The notes beneath the pieces are model-generated. The model made no database searches. It worked only from the letters and a program-made list of their open reading frames with translations, and was not told the origin of the DNA. Positions 1,344-8,746 of a stretch of DNA of 20,004 bases are shown here, piece after piece (position 1 is the first letter of the stretch; every line of letters begins with the position of its first letter). The stretch is from IMG/VR virus record IMGVR_UViG_2698536418_000005; one strand, written 5' to 3'. The stretch comes from a virus. Lineage: Duplodnaviria > Heunggongvirae > Uroviricota > Caudoviricetes. Made by a program: the position numbers and the translations under genes.

Positions 1344-2759
1344 TCAACCTACACCACAAGGAATTGAGTAACTGGAATAGTCGGGTTGCGAAGCCGACTC
1401 CGGGCAATGCATACACATCATCAGCGCATCAGCCAGGTTAGGAGATGGAATACCGAGCTTCTGCTTCATTTCGACCTTAGTCATAAGCTCCAGCTTCCCG
1501 TTATTATTGAATTTGCGCTGAATCTGCGTCAGTTCTGCAAACAGCTTCTCCAGCATCTTCTCGCCTATCACTTCTTTGTCGAAACTCAGCATGTCGTCGG
1601 GGTCTGCATACTCACCGTGGACAACCGCCCGATATGTCAGATACAGCCTGTCAGCCAGCGCGTAATAGAATTGCGCTCGCTTATTGCGGAATACATCGCC
1701 AATAGTACGAACGTTGTCGCCCTGTACGACTTCATCGGCCCATGCTCCGGCCTGATATGGTGCATCTTCATCGAATGGCGATTCGCTGCCCTTGAACATC
1801 GTGGCGGTGATTTTCTTGCCGGAGAACGCTTCCGTTGTCTGTCTGCGTAGCCCCGCACCAACACCATCACCATCCCACAGGTAATGGTCAGCGCCGTCTT
1901 CAATCGCCAGCGAAGTAGCCCAGTCAGCACCATCGTTGATGTCCATCAGCAGACCTTCGGCAATGCGCTTAACCACCGAACCGTGACGCGATGCGTAACC
2001 TTTAGCATCCGGCCCTGTATCTGACGGGTCATGTGCAGAAACAACCGCGCCTTTCGCTTTCCATCCGAGTTTCTTGTGCGCATCGGTTGCGGCTTCAAGC
2101 CATTCACGTTTGATGATTGCCATATCACTTGCGCTTACTGGCTCACCAAGCCAGATGTGACGATACAGTGTCGGATTTCTGCGTTTGCACTCTTCCATCT
2201 CCAGACGGAGAACTTCAGGAAAGTGCGGGTTGTCGGTGTAGTTCACCGTCAGCAGACAAATATCATCAGGAGGGTTTACGACGAATCGCTGATAGGTATC
2301 GTCGAGGATGTTTTTCGGGTTGAAGCTCACCCATATTTCAGAGAACGGCTTACGGATGGTTGGTATCAGGATATCCCACGATTCCTTTGTTACCGCTTCC
2401 GCTTCTTCCACCCAGCAGATATCAATACCTTCTAGCGATTTAATCTTCGTCGGGTTGTTTTTGATGCCGTAGAACATGAATTCAGCATTCGTTCCGAGAT
2501 GACGAATCATTGAACGCTGAATTTCAAACTCAGCCGAATACCCTTCACGCTCGATGGTATCTTCAAGCAACCGGATTACCGAATCGCTGATACTGTTTTG
2601 CAGTTCACGAGCGCAGAGAATACGCACTGGCTGCCGACGCACCGCTTCAACAAGCAGTCTCGCGATTGCCCATGACTTACCGCTACCTCGACCGCCTTTG
2701 GCGACTTTGTAGCGATGCGCCTCAATGAACGGTTCAAAGATAGGATTAATCGAGGTCAT
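1344..2759 (-). CDS. Terminase large subunit (PBSX/Terminase_3-like)
   Basis: 471 aa ORF; Walker A-like KGGRGSGKS near N-terminus, acidic nuclease-type C-terminal half; start overlaps upstream small-subunit stop (ATGA). Confidence 0.9.
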   Translation of the reverse strand: MTSINPIFEPFIEAHRYKVAKGGRGSGKSWAIARLLVEAVRRQPVRILCARELQNSISDSVIRLLEDTIEREGYSAEFEIQRSMIRHLGTNAEFMFYGIKNNPTKIKSLEGIDICWVEEAEAVTKESWDILIPTIRKPFSEIWVSFNPKNILDDTYQRFVVNPPDDICLLTVNYTDNPHFPEVLRLEMEECKRRNPTLYRHIWLGEPVSASDMAIIKREWLEAATDAHKKLGWKAKGAVVSAHDPSDTGPDAKGYASRHGSVVKRIAEGLLMDINDGADWATSLAIEDGADHYLWDGDGVGAGLRRQTTEAFSGKKITATMFKGSESPFDEDAPYQAGAWADEVVQGDNVRTIGDVFRNKRAQFYYALADRLYLTYRAVVHGEYADPDDMLSFDKEVIGEKMLEKLFAELTQIQRKFNNNGKLELMTKVEMKQKLGIPSPNLADALMMCMHCPESASQPDYSSYSIPCGVG

Positions 2760-3196
2760 TTTCCGAATAGAGTGCTCATCGGTGATGTTTCAATCTGAAT
2801 TGCGCCGCCGTCTTTGCCTGTTAGCTCGTGATCAACCTTGTCGCGCCATTTATCCTTCTGTCGGTTCTTAAGCCAGAAAATGGCAGCGGTTGTATCAGGC
2901 GGGTAATACTTCTCAAGCGGAGTTTCGACAATTCTGTTTTCAATAACACGAATATCGATATCTGGAGCCACGAAGCCCATAGCGCGTTGATAAAGACGAT
3001 CACTAACTTCTGCATCAGCGACGGCCTTACCCTTTTTTATGGACTCCGAAAACTTAGGATAATCAAGCTTCCACTTGTTAATAGTTGACTCACTGACTTC
3101 GAAGAAATCAGCAAGCTCTGCATCGGTGTAGCCCAGCAAGCACAGTTTGCGTGCCTGTTCGGCGTACGCCTCTTGATACTTTGTTGGGCGCGCCAT
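2756..3196 (-). CDS. Terminase small subunit (HTH-containing)
   Basis: 146 aa ORF immediately upstream of and overlapping TerL; N-terminal HTH-like segment (PTKYQEAYAEQARKLCLLGYTDAELADFFEVSESTINKW). Confidence 0.75.
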   Translation of the reverse strand: MARPTKYQEAYAEQARKLCLLGYTDAELADFFEVSESTINKWKLDYPKFSESIKKGKAVADAEVSDRLYQRAMGFVAPDIDIRVIENRIVETPLEKYYPPDTTAAIFWLKNRQKDKWRDKVDHELTGKDGGAIQIETSPMSTLFGK

Positions 3197-3198
3197 GT

Positions 3199-3441
3199 TT
3201 ATGCTCCGGTAGTGAACAGGTCTAACGCTTCCTTCGATTTACGCACCGCTTCGATTGTGCGGGTCGTGATATCTGAATTAGCGCCGCCTGACTGGAAGTG
3301 AATTTTGAATAGCTCAAGCTTCAACTCGTCAGTGCCGATGAATTGAAATGCTTCTTCTGCGGCTGCGTTCTGGTTCATGACCAGTTTGTAAATCTCTAAC
3401 TGGAATTTCTGTTCTTCAGTCATGGGAATAATCTCTGCCAT
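3199..3441 (-). CDS. Hypothetical protein (80 aa) upstream of terminase genes
   Basis: ORF with GGAG RBS about 8 nt upstream of ATG, tightly packed 2 nt before TerS; no recognisable motif. Confidence 0.5.
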   Translation of the reverse strand: MAEIIPMTEEQKFQLEIYKLVMNQNAAAEEAFQFIGTDELKLELFKIHFQSGGANSDITTRTIEAVRKSKEALDLFTTGA

Positions 3442-3798
3442 TATTGGCTCCGTTTATCCGTTAAAAGGGATATCAGTTAAGTTATCCCGTGTAGGGTATA
3501 AGCCATTGTCGAGACCACTCATTGAATGGTCTCTGCAATAACCGATGTCTTTCCATCAGTCCGCCACCACAAAGAATCTTTTTTGCCATAAGGCTGGAGG
3601 TTCATCTTTCAGTGGCTGCCAGTGTTATTTCCCCACTTACTGGCTTGGGTTGTTTCGCTGTACTGCCGTAACTGGTTACCCAGAATAAATTCCGGTTTCA
3701 TTATCAAGCCCACCCGTAGATGGGCTTTGTAATGGATAGCCGTTGCTCAGTTCTCGTAATGCTTTGATTTTTCCGATAACGCAGTTTTGCGTTTGCCA

Positions 3799-4320
3799 TC
3801 AGCACGCGATATCGAGAGTCAACTGCAGTTGCTCGCGCCAGTACTCAACATTTGCTTCAATAACCGGCTTATCCCATCGCCAGCGAGCCATCTCTCTTGC
3901 CCCATTGCTGGCTTTTGATTTCCGGTCATCGCGAATGCGACATGCTTGCTCATATTTCTGCTGCTCAGTCAGTTCACCGCGAAGCAGACTATCAATGTGC
4001 AGGTCGCACCATACGGAGAATTTCGGATCGCACCATCTTGCAAAGGCAACTGATAACTTTGGATGCAGCCATGTTCCGCCGCCCCTGTCCTTTCGTGCCT
4101 TGCTTGTTTTTACATACCCGGAATCACGGGTATGTAGAATTTTCGATGGTTCACCTGAATAAACCTCATCCAGAGCTCTAACGTATTCGAGAGTTTCAGC
4201 ATTGGACAACCAGTGATCCAGACGCTTCCCGAAACGTTTTGCAATATCAGTGGCATTAATCCAGCCATCAGTATTGAAGCGGATAGGTTCGCCTTTGTAA
4301 TTTAGTGGAACGATATTCAT
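3799..4320 (-). CDS. KilA-N domain protein
   Basis: 173 aa ORF; N-terminal region has the KilA-N/APSES-like pattern (INATDIAKRFGKRLDHWL ... GTWLHPKLSVAFARWCDPKFSVW). Confidence 0.7.
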   Translation of the reverse strand: MNIVPLNYKGEPIRFNTDGWINATDIAKRFGKRLDHWLSNAETLEYVRALDEVYSGEPSKILHTRDSGYVKTSKARKDRGGGTWLHPKLSVAFARWCDPKFSVWCDLHIDSLLRGELTEQQKYEQACRIRDDRKSKASNGAREMARWRWDKPVIEANVEYWREQLQLTLDIAC

Positions 4321-4664
4321 AGCGTCTTACCTTTTAGAAAGATGAGCCTGTTCGCACAGAAAAGCCGCCCCGAGATGGTCGCCACCATATACGGCAGTTC
4401 TCAGGCTCAGCTTTCTGAAAGACTCGGGATTGTTACGCGCTGCGATGCGCGGTTTACTGCAGATGTAAAAAAGCCCCGCTAATGCGAGGCTAAATCCTGG
4501 TATTTGTAATGACTGGCTCTTATCTCAACGCAGCCCCTTACCGCGCGCCAGATGCTCAATATCAAGCATCAGCAATGAGATGTTTAATCTGGATTCACTC
4601 CAGAAGTGATCACCACCCTGTCTACAGAGCCAGATGTGAAGGATGATGAGTAAAATTATCGCTA

Positions 4665-5102
4665 TCATCGAAGGCATTGCGTCCTGATGTATTCCTGCAA
4701 GTAGTTAACCTGCGCGGTTATCTTGTCGATTCCACTTCGGAGACGGTAATAATTGAGTTCAGCATCTGCTGTAAGTCTTGGGCTTTCTCCATCGCCCATG
4801 CCGCTGGCTCCGGTCGTTGACTTTGCACAGGTGGCGGCGACTTGCAGGCGCTTACGCCCAGCAGAAACATCAGCACGGAGACTTTCGATAGTCGCGTTAG
4901 CATCAGCAAGCTCCTTTGTGTATCTGGCGTCAAGTTCTGCTACATCACGTTGACGCTTCTGCATATCAGCGATGATGGACGTGGCTTTATCGCGCTGCTC
5001 TTTGTAGGCGATGGCGTTATCACGGTAGTGATTAACAGCCCATGACAGGCAAACGATGATGCAGATAACCAGAGCGGAGATAATCGCGGTTACTCTGCTC
5101 AT
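4665..5102 (-). CDS. Rz: Rz-like i-spanin (lambda-like N-terminus, divergent C-terminus)
   Basis: 145 aa ORF; start overlaps R stop (ATGA); N-terminal TM segment [31 protein letters not shown] matches lambda Rz as recalled, remainder diverges. Confidence 0.8.
4718..4903 (-). CDS. Rz1: Rz1-like o-spanin lipoprotein embedded in Rz (+1 frame)
   Basis: 61 aa ORF from internal Met of track ORF 4718..4933; signal-like segment with lipobox-like VSAC followed by Pro-rich stretch; fully nested inside Rz as in lambda. Confidence 0.65.
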
Positions 5103-5575
5103 ACCTCAATCTCTCTGACCGTTCCGCCCGCTTCTTTGAATTTTGCAATCAGGCTGTCAGCCTTATGCTCGAACTGACCATAACCAGCGCCCGGAAGTGA
5201 AGCCCAGATATTGCTGCAACGGTCGATAGCCTGACGAATATCACCGCGATCAATCATCGGTAAAGCGCCACGCTCTTTAATCTGTTGCAGTGCCACAGCG
5301 TCCTGGCTTTTCGGAGAGAAGTCTTTCAGGCCAAGCTGCTTACGATAGGCATCCCACCAACGGGAAAGAAGCTGGTAACGTCCGGCTGCTGTTGATTTGA
5401 GTTTGGGGTTTAGCGTGACAAGTTTGCGAGGGTGATCGGAGTAATCAGTGAATAGCTCTCCGCCAACAATGACGTCATAACCATGATTTCTGGTTTTCTG
5501 TCGTCCGTTATCTGTTCCCTCTGACCACGCCAGCATATCGAGGAACGCCTTACGTTGATTATTGATTTCCACCAT
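5099..5575 (-). CDS. R: Endolysin R (lytic transglycosylase), lambda R-like
   Basis: 158 aa; sequence [39 protein letters not shown]... matches lambda R from memory; overlaps S by 17 nt as in lambda. Confidence 0.95.
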
Positions 5576-5882
5576 CTTCTACTCCGGCTTTTTTAGCAGC
5601 GAAGCGTTTGATAAGCGAACCAATCGAGTCAGTGCCGATGTAGCCGATGAACACGCTCGTTATATAAGCGAGATTGCTACTTAGTCCGGCGAAGTCGAGA
5701 AGGTCACGAATGAACCAGGCGATAATGGCGCACATCGTTGCGTCGATTACTGTTTTTGTAAACGCACCGCCATTATATCTGCCGCGAAGGTACGCCATTG
5801 CAAACGCAAGGATTGCCCCGATGCCTTGTTCCTTTGCCGCGAGAATGGCGGCTAACAGGTCATGTTTTTCTGGCATCTTCAT
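5559..5882 (-). CDS. S: Holin/antiholin S (dual-start S107/S105), lambda S-like
   Basis: 107 aa; Met1-Lys2-Met3 dual-start motif ([10 protein letters not shown]...), three hydrophobic segments; matches lambda S from memory. Confidence 0.95.
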
Positions 5883-6569: not shown

Positions 6570-7193
6570 CTAACGTGTGACCGCATTCAAAATATTGTCT
6601 GCGATTGACTCTTCCTTGTGGCATTGCACCGCCAGAGCGTCATACAGCGGCTTAACAGTGCGTGACCAGGTGGGTTGAGTAAGGTTTGGGATTAGCATCG
6701 TTACAGCGCGATATGCGGCGCTTGCTGGCATCCTTGAATAGCCGACGCCTTTGCATCTTCCGCACTCTTTCTCAACAACTCTCCCCCACTGCTCCGTTTT
6801 GGCTATATCAACCGCACGGCCTGTACCGTGACAATCTCTGCATCTTGCTCCCGGCGTCGCAGCACTACGGCAATAATCCGCATAAGCGAATGTTGCGAGC
6901 ACTTGCAGTACCTTTGCCTTAGTATTTCCTTCGAGCTTTGCCACACCACGGTATTTCCCCGATACCTTGTGTGCAAATTGCATCAGATAGTTGATAGCCT
7001 TTTGTTTGTCGTTCTGGCTGAGTTCATGCTTACCGCAGAATGCAGCCATTCCGAATCCGGCTTGTGATTGCGCCATCCCCATAGCAGCCATCACATCAGT
7101 ACCGGAAAGAGAGTCAGAAGCCGTAGCCCGTGGTGAGTCGCTCATCATCGGGCTTTTTGGCGAATGAAATTTAGCTACGCTTTCGAGTCTCAT
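6570..7193 (-). CDS. Q: Late antiterminator Q, lambda Q-like
   Basis: 207 aa; MRLESVAKFHSPKSPMMSDSPRATASD... with Cys-rich Zn-binding segment (CRDCHGTGR...CGRCKG); matches lambda Q from memory. Confidence 0.9.
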   Translation of the reverse strand: MRLESVAKFHSPKSPMMSDSPRATASDSLSGTDVMAAMGMAQSQAGFGMAAFCGKHELSQNDKQKAINYLMQFAHKVSGKYRGVAKLEGNTKAKVLQVLATFAYADYCRSAATPGARCRDCHGTGRAVDIAKTEQWGRVVEKECGRCKGVGYSRMPASAAYRAVTMLIPNLTQPTWSRTVKPLYDALAVQCHKEESIADNILNAVTR

Positions 7194-7737: not shown

Positions 7738-8024
7738 GGCTTAATCTTCCCCTCCTTCAGCAGGATCGCCTGCGTCCTGATCACGCCTTCGAGGTGATAA
7801 AGTCTGGCGTCTTTGTTGTCGAGATTATGGGTGCGTCGGTCGATTTCATCGTGACACGCGCTACAAGCCCATGCGCCGATCAGGTCGTCAGGCTTCATTC
7901 CAGTTCCGCAAATTCCAGCCATCCGGTAATGTGCCAGAACTGTAGTTTCAGGATTGCCATTGCATACGCCGTAAATACGTACCTGGCATTCTCTGCCGCG
8001 CGCTTCTTTGCGTAGGTTAGCCAT
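7734..8024 (-). CDS. YbcO/DUF1364-like Cys-rich protein (putative nuclease)
   Basis: 96 aa; Cys/His-rich (CQVRIYGVCNG...CSACHDEID); resembles DLP12 ybcO-type proteins that sit next to rusA; overlaps rusA start (ATGA). Confidence 0.6.
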   Translation of the reverse strand: MANLRKEARGRECQVRIYGVCNGNPETTVLAHYRMAGICGTGMKPDDLIGAWACSACHDEIDRRTHNLDNKDARLYHLEGVIRTQAILLKEGKIKP

Positions 8025-8746
8025 TAAGCAGCCTCCCCTGTTACTTTCAGCATTCTGTTATCGAGCAGCTTTCTGGTCAGCCACTGTTGACCACGCCCGG
8101 TGATTTTTGTGGTGAACGATATCTGTATTCCGTGATTTGTGTTGACCGCTGTTTCTTTCACTGTGAAATAGCCGCGCTCCATATATTCCTGCATTGGCAC
8201 ATTGCGCCGGGAACCTGAAGCAATAAGGATTTTGTGATCGCGCATCCACGCAAACAGTTTGTTTGGACCAATTCCAACAACCTTTGCAAAGTTTCCAATC
8301 AAAATTCCGCTGGCCTCGCCAACGCGATCGGCAAACTCAACTTTAGGTGCGACAATTGCGAGCTGGTTTTCCAGTTGCATTTTCTGCTCAGCAAGATCGG
8401 CAGCAAGGCGCAACGCTTCCGGTAGCGTTTTGGGGATATTAACCGCAGCTTCTTCAAGATCTCGCCAGCGGTCAACAAGGCGAGCGGTGAACTCTGGCGA
8501 CAACTGGGCAACAACGACAATACTGTCTCGCTTACCTTGTTCGCCCTCGAAGACGTAATGCTCGTACTGAACATTGAACCCTAAGTTATTGATTCTTTCG
8601 GAAACCTCAATTTGAGGAAGCCGGATAACACCATTTTTAGCCAGCGTTTCTATGGTACGTTTCACATTGTCATGGCGCTTACCCACCAACTCAGCGATTT
8701 CAATGCTTGTCATTTTGATGGCATTGCCATTTATTAACTCATTCAT
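8024..8746 (-). CDS. Rha-family regulator / antirepressor (Rha N-domain + KilAC-like C-domain)
   Basis: 240 aa; N-terminal Rha-like segment (TSIEIAELVGKRHDNVKRTIETL), C-terminal antirepressor-like region; GAGGAAG RBS. Confidence 0.7.
   Translation of the reverse strand: MNELINGNAIKMTSIEIAELVGKRHDNVKRTIETLAKNGVIRLPQIEVSERINNLGFNVQYEHYVFEGEQGKRDSIVVVAQLSPEFTARLVDRWRDLEEAAVNIPKTLPEALRLAADLAEQKMQLENQLAIVAPKVEFADRVGEASGILIGNFAKVVGIGPNKLFAWMRDHKILIASGSRRNVPMQEYMERGYFTVKETAVNTNHGIQISFTTKITGRGQQWLTRKLLDNRMLKVTGEAA

Follow-up and report, generated by a model that had tools for sequence, protein, structure and literature searches.

In the lambda cIII mRNA, the MS2 maturation-gene leader and the hok mRNA, the Shine-Dalgarno (SD) sequence is sequestered by long-range pairing, and a competing or transient fold permits translation. 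The present work concerns a structured RNA leader that resembles these ribosome binding site (RBS)-occluding leaders in its predicted mechanism, with no sequence relationship to them. It precedes the gene of a KilA-N domain protein in a stretch of 20,004 nucleotides of viral DNA (Caudoviricetes; IMG/VR record IMGVR_UViG_2698536418_000005), which is referred to below as the window. In mechanism, the nearest precedent comes from the Salmonella prophage Gifsy-1, whose IsrK-orf45-anrP leader has a silent conformation, in which the RBS is occluded, and an active one (Hershko-Shalev et al. 2016, PMC4825925). Both are prophage leader RNAs located upstream of an antirepressor-like gene, and both have two alternative structures, one of which occludes the RBS, as judged for the window leader from covariation and structure prediction only. 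There are also differences. IsrK couples via an upstream small open reading frame (ORF), whereas the window leader has no conserved upstream ORF; a 23-codon minus-strand ORF that overlaps the KilA-N ATG was considered as a leader peptide and rejected, being lost or frameshifted in homologues. Unlike IsrK, the window leader has no detected promoter of its own, shows no evident short terminated isoform outside type-1 sequences, is shorter (about 120 nt) and lies in a late operon after the lysis genes. The isrK family (RF01394) has no match on the window at E-values up to 10, and its one match elsewhere is sub-threshold and lies off the leader.

A second point of comparison is the moron, in the definition of Juhala and Hendrix as used in the epsilon34 paper. 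The locus is moron-like in that an accessory gene is present, absent or replaced between conserved late-operon genes. Unlike morons, the KilA-N slot has no detected promoter of its own, and its terminator precedes the gene instead of following it. A third point of comparison comes from a June 2026 small-RNA study of P22-infected Salmonella, which reports ten P22 species (Naaz et al. 2026, PMC13397905). In the sections of that study on the two species of interest here, P22F (21301-21389) is described as "partially overlapping ORF201, no known function", and P22G lies "downstream of ORF201", its function likewise not being assigned; both reach high levels in P22-infected cells and in vesicles, the counts for infected cells being 488-2054 reads per million. 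They flank ORF201 (rha), which occupies in P22 the same slot as the KilA-N gene in the window. Those sections present single-sequence MFold structures, and contain no covariation analysis, RBS link or family distribution. According to a paper that cites the original work, P22 rha (orf201) is detrimental to lytic growth without host integration host factor (IHF) and is IHF-regulated.

Altogether, comparison of the window with related phages indicates that both flanks of the KilA-N gene are probably cis-acting RNA elements of the late transcript, and that the leader probably limits the translation of a regulator gene. The leader defines a new RNA family whose type of function, RBS occlusion with an alternative fold, is familiar; it is widespread and unannotated and was glimpsed experimentally only recently, as P22F.

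Two covarying folds in the leader of the KilA-N gene

The leader ends at the KilA-N start codon and is recovered as the single match in the window, with 133 bits, of a covariance model (CM), R1, built on its long-hairpin structure. In this structure (fold A), the helices succeed one another in the order UCUUU:AAAGG, AGAAAG:CUUUCU, UGAGCCUG:CAGGCUCA, AGAA:UUCU and GCCG:CGGC, the first of them formed by an anti-SD sequence and the SD itself. Across 62 aligned sequences, 83.6% of the cells of fold A are paired, against 73.3% in shuffles (0/500) and 39-50% when the partner strand is slid along. Both sides change in 27 of the 32 pairs, with a covariation score of 0.299 versus 0.157. Compensated helices include GAGCCUG/CAGGCUC, GACCUCUG/CAGAGGUC and GAGCCUUUG/CAAAGGUUC, to which GCCG/CGGC, GUCAG/CUGAU and GCCAU/AUGGC can be added. 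Minimum-free-energy prediction also yields fold A for each of the 16 diverged representatives, the SD being paired in all of them. The probability of an unpaired SD is predicted at 0.05-0.21. The segment GCCG...CGGC-UUUUCUG within the leader was considered as a second terminator and rejected, because diverged leaders have no U-run there and the Us pair with the upstream AGAA, which makes them a helix strand.

The second fold (fold B) is defined by helix Pa, in which the segment directly 5' of the anti-SD pairs with the apical loop of fold A. In a window-based helix search, 60 of the 62 sequences have an uninterrupted Pa helix of 5 bp or more, with 17 distinct helix sequences (19 were listed, of which two spurious short matches were removed). 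The variants include CCCGAG/CUCGGG, CGAGAG/CUCUCG, CCAAGAG/CUCUUGG, CACAGAA/UUCUGUG and CGUCGA/UCGACG; in control runs with shuffled 3' windows, 7% of trials scored as high as 6. A CM alignment built on Pa has 71% of its cells paired, versus 56.7% in shuffles. These CM counts are supportive but weaker because many rows are out of register, and the window-based search is therefore taken as the main test of Pa. For 9 of the 16 representatives, folding of the nascent 5' domain is predicted to produce the helix. Enforcing Pa makes the RBS cheaper to open in 10 of 14 representatives, at 1.9-6.2 kcal/mol compared with 4.3-19 kcal/mol in the free ensemble. Pa crosses the long hairpin in sequence order, and the two appear mutually exclusive because, by a rough helix-length estimate, the linker is too short to accommodate both.

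The leader is conserved across different cargo genes and across genera. The approximately 150 nt from the terminator to the KilA-N ATG recur, without annotation, at 77-99% identity; Stx2 phages, Enterobacter phage CobraSix and a Klebsiella phage all have such copies ahead of Rha genes, in different genomic surroundings. A pattern scan of viral contigs gave 120 loci with 67 distinct 145-nt versions, and loci fetched by Rha protein homology contain far more diverged leaders with the same architecture. The R1 model finds additional copies before other genes, for instance before a P22_AR_N antirepressor gene in an Stx2 phage. According to Pfam, the genes that follow the leader encode KilA-N, Phage_pRha with or without ORF11CD3, P22_AR_N+ORF11CD3, ANT/KilAC, T5orf172/MUG113 and HNH_3 proteins; over this range of cargo, leader identity spans 77-100%, with much more diverged forms in addition. 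A leader detectable by BLAST is present in 916 of 5426 complete Escherichia coli genomes (about 17%). In NEB5-alpha, the BLAST leader match adjoins a Rha gene that is probably the rha of phi80, which would place the leader family in that phage too. A scan of genome contigs with a pattern of 14 specified bases was discarded, as it returned chance matches. Rfam contains no match to the leader, D1 or D2a (two downstream elements described below) at gathering or permissive thresholds; weak matches to mir-10, Proteo-phage-1, AbsR28, RsmY, isrJ and isrK were dismissed as noise. No RNA is annotated at the locus in RefSeq, and no IHF consensus occurs in the leader. A perfect IHF consensus, WATCAANNNNTTR, is found at 3757-3769 on the minus strand, between the KilA-N stop codon and D1; across the whole window, IHF consensus matches are at chance level (18 versus 21.8 expected).

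The link to P22 is provided by the leader model. The P22 copy of the leader matches the family model at 21274-21397 with 86.5 bits (locus L328, 975-1098; AF217253), and P22F falls within this copy. The window leader has no BLAST match to P22F, being too diverged, and their homology is apparent via the covariance model only. On the other side of the gene, nucleotides 59-204 of P22G align to window positions 3669-3526 with 96.6% identity over 146 nt. Since both P22F and P22G were detected, both flanks yield stable RNA species in a related phage.

Several individual loci deserve mention. The Stx2a phage Stx2_PV11-77 (L004) has a second, diverged leader at 3865-3984 on the minus strand (63 bits), directly upstream of an antirepressor-like gene of 189 aa with P22_AR_N+ORF11CD3 domains, inserted between lysozyme and Rz; this phage therefore carries two leader-gene units. 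Shortened leaders, at 8525-8625 in L008 and 3150-3251 in L275, lack P3 and lie upstream of further genes on the same contigs; they keep the long hairpin and Pa (AGAGAG/CUCUCU and GAAAG/CUUUC). Locus L059 was considered as an ancestral empty slot and rejected: it arose by deletion, and of its leader the 5' part alone remains. There (3798-3916), the internal bulge of the leader (GUGCGAA) is joined straight to the post-D1 sequence ACCGGAAUUU, the leader 3' half, the cargo gene and D1 being missing; the deletion apparently occurred through GAA microhomology. In L255, an isrJ match of 25.4 bits (gathering threshold 37) lies at 1259-1344, just upstream of a leader, and in L259 an isrK match of 20.9 bits (gathering threshold 50) lies at 2004-2087, just downstream of a Rha gene. 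Both are sub-threshold; they may reflect noise from terminators, or else a remote relationship with the Gifsy-1 isrK-anrP-isrJ locus. The window itself encodes a second antirepressor-like protein of 240 aa (8024-8746, minus strand, in the nin/Q region), whose C-terminal half resembles an ANT/KilAC protein found downstream of the leader elsewhere. The leader model has no match upstream of this gene; the leader is therefore not attached to every gene of the kind.

A mode of action can be proposed from these observations. If the lambdoid late operons annotated in epsilon34 and P22 are taken as a guide, the transcript is that of the Q-dependent late operon. A terminator located between the lysis genes and the leader (T1) would be passed only by antiterminated polymerase, and expression of the gene would be limited to Q-antiterminated transcription. 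At equilibrium, the long hairpin would hold the anti-SD on the SD and keep KilA-N translation low. Because Pa is transcribed first, it is most likely a co-transcriptional or factor-stabilised alternative fold in which opening of the RBS would be cheaper, and the leader as a whole would then serve as a two-state translational gate. The recurrence, in many enterobacterial phages, of the terminator-leader unit before interchangeable DNA-binding, antirepressor-like or nuclease genes suggests the silencing of potentially harmful regulators, which would be silent in the lysogen and limited in lytic growth. Downstream of the gene, D1, D2a and further hairpins are probably stability or processing determinants, as suggested by the accumulation of the P22 counterpart as a discrete small RNA. 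A more ambitious version of the proposal holds that the leader is a true switch, in which a signal tips the equilibrium towards Pa or towards the long hairpin; this signal might be a protein of phage or host, a small RNA, a ligand or temperature. Such a switch would time the expression of Rha, KilA-N, P22_AR_N and Ant proteins in many enterobacterial prophages, Stx phages among them, and influence prophage induction or cross-induction, with D1 and D2a acting in the same control layer; we consider this rather unlikely.

A number of points weigh against the restraint of translation by the leader, or at least against parts of that proposal. The effect of the leader on translation is deduced from covariation and predicted structure. 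The shuffle controls overstate significance because many sequences are closely related, and for part of the sample some leader positions were fixed by the search patterns, a constraint from which the Rha-based sample is free. About 40% of the CM rows are out of register for Pa, and only 62.7% of Pa cells are paired there; P2, a third helix of the 5' domain, is weak. The ON state is not clear-cut: even with Pa enforced, most of the SD is predicted to pair, in a weak local hairpin, and for 4 of the 14 representatives the opening cost stays the same or shifts by no more than about 1 kcal/mol in either direction. As the exclusivity of Pa and the long hairpin depends on helix-length estimates, a pseudoknot would be possible. 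P22F ends in the lower stem, just before the start codon, which fits a decay fragment equally. Finally, D2a offers no covariation because it is almost invariant, and its conservation could reflect recombination, not function.

Conserved RNA elements around an exchangeable gene

The window comes from a P22-like (Lederbergvirus) E. coli phage or prophage, as judged from its ORF listing and from database comparison, and its segment 3199-4700 is best matched by Escherichia phages E212 and EC.P3, with 98.5% identity. The late genes are on the minus strand in the order Q, holin, lysozyme, Rz, KilA-N, DUF2560, terS and terL, and these assignments were confirmed with Pfam and PHROGs (Table 1). The first-pass annotation of this DNA, made from the sequence alone, had placed a KilA-N gene between the lysis and packaging modules, and this holds: the gene lies between Rz and DUF2560/terS/terL. 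Residues 7-114 of its product match PF04383 with an E-value of 2.8e-24 (85.5 bits, cut-off 23.8), and the C-terminus has a weak ORF11CD3 match in Pfam. The flanks of about 350 bp reported on each side measure 357 bp (3442-3798) and 344 bp (4321-4664), and neither contains a long ORF. The upstream flank is not entirely free of annotation, as an annotated minus-strand ORF of 50 aa, of uncertain coding status, overlaps the end of Rz. Neither tRNA nor tmRNA was found.

Table 1. Positions of the genes and RNA elements of the window, from Q to the large terminase
Feature	Position	Strand	Remarks
Q	6570-7193	minus	
Holin	5559-5882	minus	
Lysozyme	5099-5575	minus	
Rz	4665-5102	minus	Rz1 embedded
50-aa ORF	4525-4677	minus	Overlaps Rz end; full-length phrog_11822 match, E 3.9e-38; equivalent of epsilon34 gp67
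Intrinsic terminator T1	4465-4491	minus	After the lysis genes; stem 4472-4491 plus U-run; predicted by terminator scan
P0	4436-4451	minus	Small GC hairpin CGCGC-AUCGCA-GCGCG between T1 and leader
Leader of KilA-N mRNA	4318-4439	minus	Structured, about 120 nt; ends at ATG (4318-4320); covariance model R1
Helix Pa (fold B)	4369-4428	minus	CCCGAG (4423-4428), directly 5' of the anti-SD, pairs with CUCGGG (4369-4374) in the fold A apical loop
Long hairpin (fold A)	4330-4422	minus	Small P3 hairpin at tip; anti-SD UCUUU (4418-4422) pairs with SD AAAGG (4330-4334)
KilA-N gene	3799-4320	minus	173 aa; Pfam PF04383; swappable cargo of the slot
D1 hairpin	3699-3734	minus	CAUUACA-AAGCCCA-UCUACGGG-UGGGCUU-GAUAAUG; 14-bp imperfect stem; cassette 3' end
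D2a core	3544-3669	minus	125 nt, nearly invariant; homologous to P22 small RNA P22G
Hairpin of inverted repeat I2	3505-3539	minus	GAGACCA-UUCAAUGAG-UGGUCUC; extended stem
Inverted repeat I1	3454-3501	minus	Alternating inverted UAUCCC/GGGAUAA motifs just upstream of the DUF2560 SD
DUF2560 gene	3199-3441	minus	80 aa; downstream neighbour; Pfam DUF2560, E 1.1e-43
terS (small terminase)	2756-3196	minus	CUS-3 type, 98-99.5% identity
terL (large terminase)	1344-2759	minus	

The region between the lysis and packaging genes is an accessory-gene slot that is transcribed on the minus strand. Between conserved neighbours, it holds a KilA-N, a Rha or a GIY-YIG/T5orf172 gene depending on the phage, as is typical of a moron. 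Rha genes occupy it in P22, Sf101, CUS-3 and others, and a T5orf172/GIY-YIG gene replaces KilA-N in epsilon34, from the equivalent of window position 3670 to 4313. Because its content differs between phages, the slot is a known variable site, and it is the conservation of its surroundings that comes as a surprise. Epsilon34 has 3199-3669 and 4314-4800 in common with the window, and the Salmonella SE16/ABTNLsp11242 group has only 3490-4490. In pairwise comparison, mosaic joints fall near 4490, 4314, 3735, 3669-3676, 3544, 3490 and 3192-3199.

Both flanks are structured, as the first-pass annotation had proposed. Relative to dinucleotide shuffles, 3435-3800 folds with z = -6.7 (0/100 shuffles as stable) and 4310-4500 with z = -3.0 (1/200). 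Structure prediction and covariance analysis across relatives, by which that annotation had suggested its hairpins be checked, found the GAGACCA...TGGTCTC and GCCCA...TGGGC hairpins to be kept in related phages with compensatory changes. The GAGACCA...TGGTCTC hairpin is exact at 3511-3533. The other two were displaced by 1-3 nt: GGGATA...TATCCC lies at 3467-3488 and is the central one of several possible pairings, and GCCCA...TGGGC belongs to AAGCCCA/TGGGCTT at 3706-3727, the inner stem of D1. The terminator-like element seen after Rz near 4472-4495 is a canonical minus-strand intrinsic terminator, in which an 8-bp stem at 4472-4491 is followed by TTTTTT.

This terminator, T1, has 8 pairs, of which 6 are G-C, a loop of 4 and then UUUUUU, as expected from the sequence of an intrinsic terminator, and its counterpart in epsilon34 is annotated as a Rho-independent terminator. 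The stems vary between phages yet stay paired (AGCCUCGC/GCGGGGCU, AGCCAGC/GCUGGCU and AGCCCGG/CCGGGCU), and a terminator-like hairpin with a T-run lies at most 90 nt upstream of the leader in 48 of 61 cases. A GCGC-loop-GCGC hairpin (P0) precedes nearly all leaders, and variants such as UGUGC/GCACA and GCUC/GAGC are still paired. Further upstream, the epsilon34 equivalent of the 50-aa ORF, gp67, is likened to Sf6 gene 65 in the annotation of the epsilon34 record. The ORF is open in 37 distinct gapless homologues, in which variable sites are distributed over the codon positions as 11:9:14; the lack of a third-position substitution bias makes its coding status uncertain.

The downstream flank is modular. 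D1 has 64 matches, after many different cargo genes. Among the 23 distinct variants of its 7-bp stem, 145 pairs are Watson-Crick, 16 are G-U and none is a mismatch, the loop being free to vary. The U of every G-U pair is on the 5' strand, and one variant, AAGCGUC/GGCGCUU, is doubly compensated; this pattern fits RNA of the minus strand only. A moron would be expected to have its own downstream terminator; D1, at the 3' end of the cassette, is conserved but has no U-run. The D2a core is almost unchanged across 74 distinct contexts with differing flanks. The hairpin at 3511-3533 forms a series from A-U through G-U to G-C: GAGACCA/UGGUCUC, GAGGCCA/UGGUCUC, which is the commonest, and GAGGCCA/UGGCCUC, a single variant that is probably that of P22. 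Such a compensatory series is paired throughout only on the minus strand. Just ahead of the next gene, the motif pair UAUCCCC-N4-8-GGGGAUAA occurs in two copies, and it is found with differing spacers before the next gene's SD in other loci. In the window and at the equivalent positions in loci L030, L118, L256 and L108, the arrays of UAUCCC(C)/(G)GGGAUAA allow two adjacent hairpins or one central hairpin; they may be RNA structures or DNA-binding sites.

Other readings of the flanks

The flanks might instead be linker or boundary sequences kept by recombinational gene exchange, the hairpins being incidental; we regard this as improbable as a full account. It is consistent with the coincidence of the mosaic joints with the edges of conserved blocks, with the swapping of cargo genes from at least six families in the space that separates the leader from D1 and with the near invariance of D2a in flanks that differ in 74 contexts. 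Short repeats, GAUAAUG and GACAAUG, are present at two joints, and the deletion variant joins at GAA microhomology. Near-repeats also flank the D2 block, CUUGAUAAUG at the end of D1 and CUCGACAAUG, at 3691-3705 and 3504-3512 on the minus strand. In other phages, D1 is joined straight to the sequence after the second near-repeat, which suggests recombination at these short repeats. However, diverged leaders retain both folds by compensatory changes, the D1 stem tolerates G-U pairs with the U always on the same strand and no mismatches around a free loop, and the 3511-3533 hairpin passes from A-U to G-U to G-C. Strand-specific pairing of this kind is not expected of blocks of DNA homology. The suggestion that the region is a recombination scar is accordingly half right: mosaic joints do lie at the flank edges, but the conserved segments are under RNA-level constraint and are not inert scars. 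The linker and RNA roles are not mutually exclusive; the former accounts for the joints, and perhaps for the lack of variation in D2a, but leaves the compensatory changes unexplained.

There is a comparably small chance that the flanks encode trans-acting small RNAs of the P22F and P22G type, which would base-pair with host or phage targets, as the 2026 P22 study implies. P22F and P22G are indeed abundant in P22-infected cells and vesicles, both stretches are highly structured and D2a is conserved independently of its neighbours. Against this, a consensus scan of 3100-4800 found no sigma-70-like promoter, and the candidate promoter hexamers judged by eye in the leader alignments are poor and not conserved. 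Diverged versions of the leader have no U-run after the hairpin, and P22F starts inside a stem, like a product of processing or decay. A start codon invariably closes the leader, and its anti-SD covaries with the SD. The idea of late-operon processing or regulatory signals, raised in the first-pass annotation, is supported in spirit by the RNA-type changes of the minus-strand hairpins and by the P22 counterparts that accumulate as small RNAs.

It is very improbable that the flanks are protein-coding, be it as an N-terminal extension of the cargo (P22 ORF201), as the N-terminus or relic of "orf118" or as a plus-strand ORF of 46 aa. Annotation provides the grounds for this reading: the annotated start of P22 ORF201 lies within the leader, the epsilon34 record marks part of the downstream flank as similar to the N-terminus of ST64T orf118, and a small plus-strand ORF in a different frame is annotated in another phage record. 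However, indels shift all these frames among homologues, and none has a family match in Pfam or PHROGs. The annotation lets ORF201 (rha) start at a GTG within the leader, whereas the CM-defined leader ends at a conserved SD and an ATG that corresponds to Met24. Its start is probably annotated 23 codons too far upstream, Met24 giving a 178-aa Phage_pRha+ORF11CD3 protein. The start of ST64T-type orf118 is probably also annotated too far upstream. The ORF that begins at 3589 ends after 10-45 codons in most variants, two 118-aa versions excepted, is broken by indels in an A-run and sometimes has AAG in place of ATG; the notion of an "orf118 N-terminal relic" was for these reasons rejected in favour of a conserved noncoding region. 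The two 118-aa DUF2560 ORFs (L002, 2243-2599, and L297) appear to be upstream in-frame extensions of the 80-aa-type gene. This form has an internal Met39 (MAEITALTE...) at the usual DUF2560 start, and the extension (window 3482-3589) overlaps the near-invariant D2a. A 47-aa plus-strand ORF at 3545-3688, antisense to D2a, has its first 28 codons in common with a 63-aa P22 ORF; beyond these the two diverge after a 2-nt indel, and the frame is not conserved. The putative 46-aa plus-strand ORF with a helix-turn-helix-like segment that had been noticed at 4342-4482 does not stand either: it matches no family, is antisense to the leader, and its frame is broken by 1-nt indels in homologues.

The possibility that the region holds the pac site of the adjacent headful terminase, in line with an early suggestion of a packaging recognition site, can practically be set aside: the region is immediately upstream of terS and terL and its repeated inverted GGGATAA/TTATCCC motifs could be protein-binding sites, but the same elements accompany different terS types and also occur in lambda-like siphoviruses and in Stx, Klebsiella and Enterobacter phages, the constraints on D1 and the 3511-3533 hairpin are RNA-like, a search of the window that allowed up to 3 mismatches did not find the P22 pac 22-mer, the window terS being of the CUS-3 type, and the P22 pac site is inside the terS gene (PMC9611059), outside of which the conserved flank elements lie.

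Consequences for phage regulators

The cargo of the slot belongs to the Pfam families KilA-N, Rha, P22_AR_N, ANT, T5orf172 and ORF11CD3, and the RNA leader that these genes share lies outside the family descriptions. Rha, KilA-N and Ant-type proteins are among the commonest and least understood phage regulators. A shared leader supported by covariation offers a testable handle on how Rha, KilA-N and Ant-type genes are restrained, in a family that is also present in P22 and in Stx2 phages. P22F and P22G thereby gain a cis-regulatory context, and the new RNA family could enter annotation pipelines.

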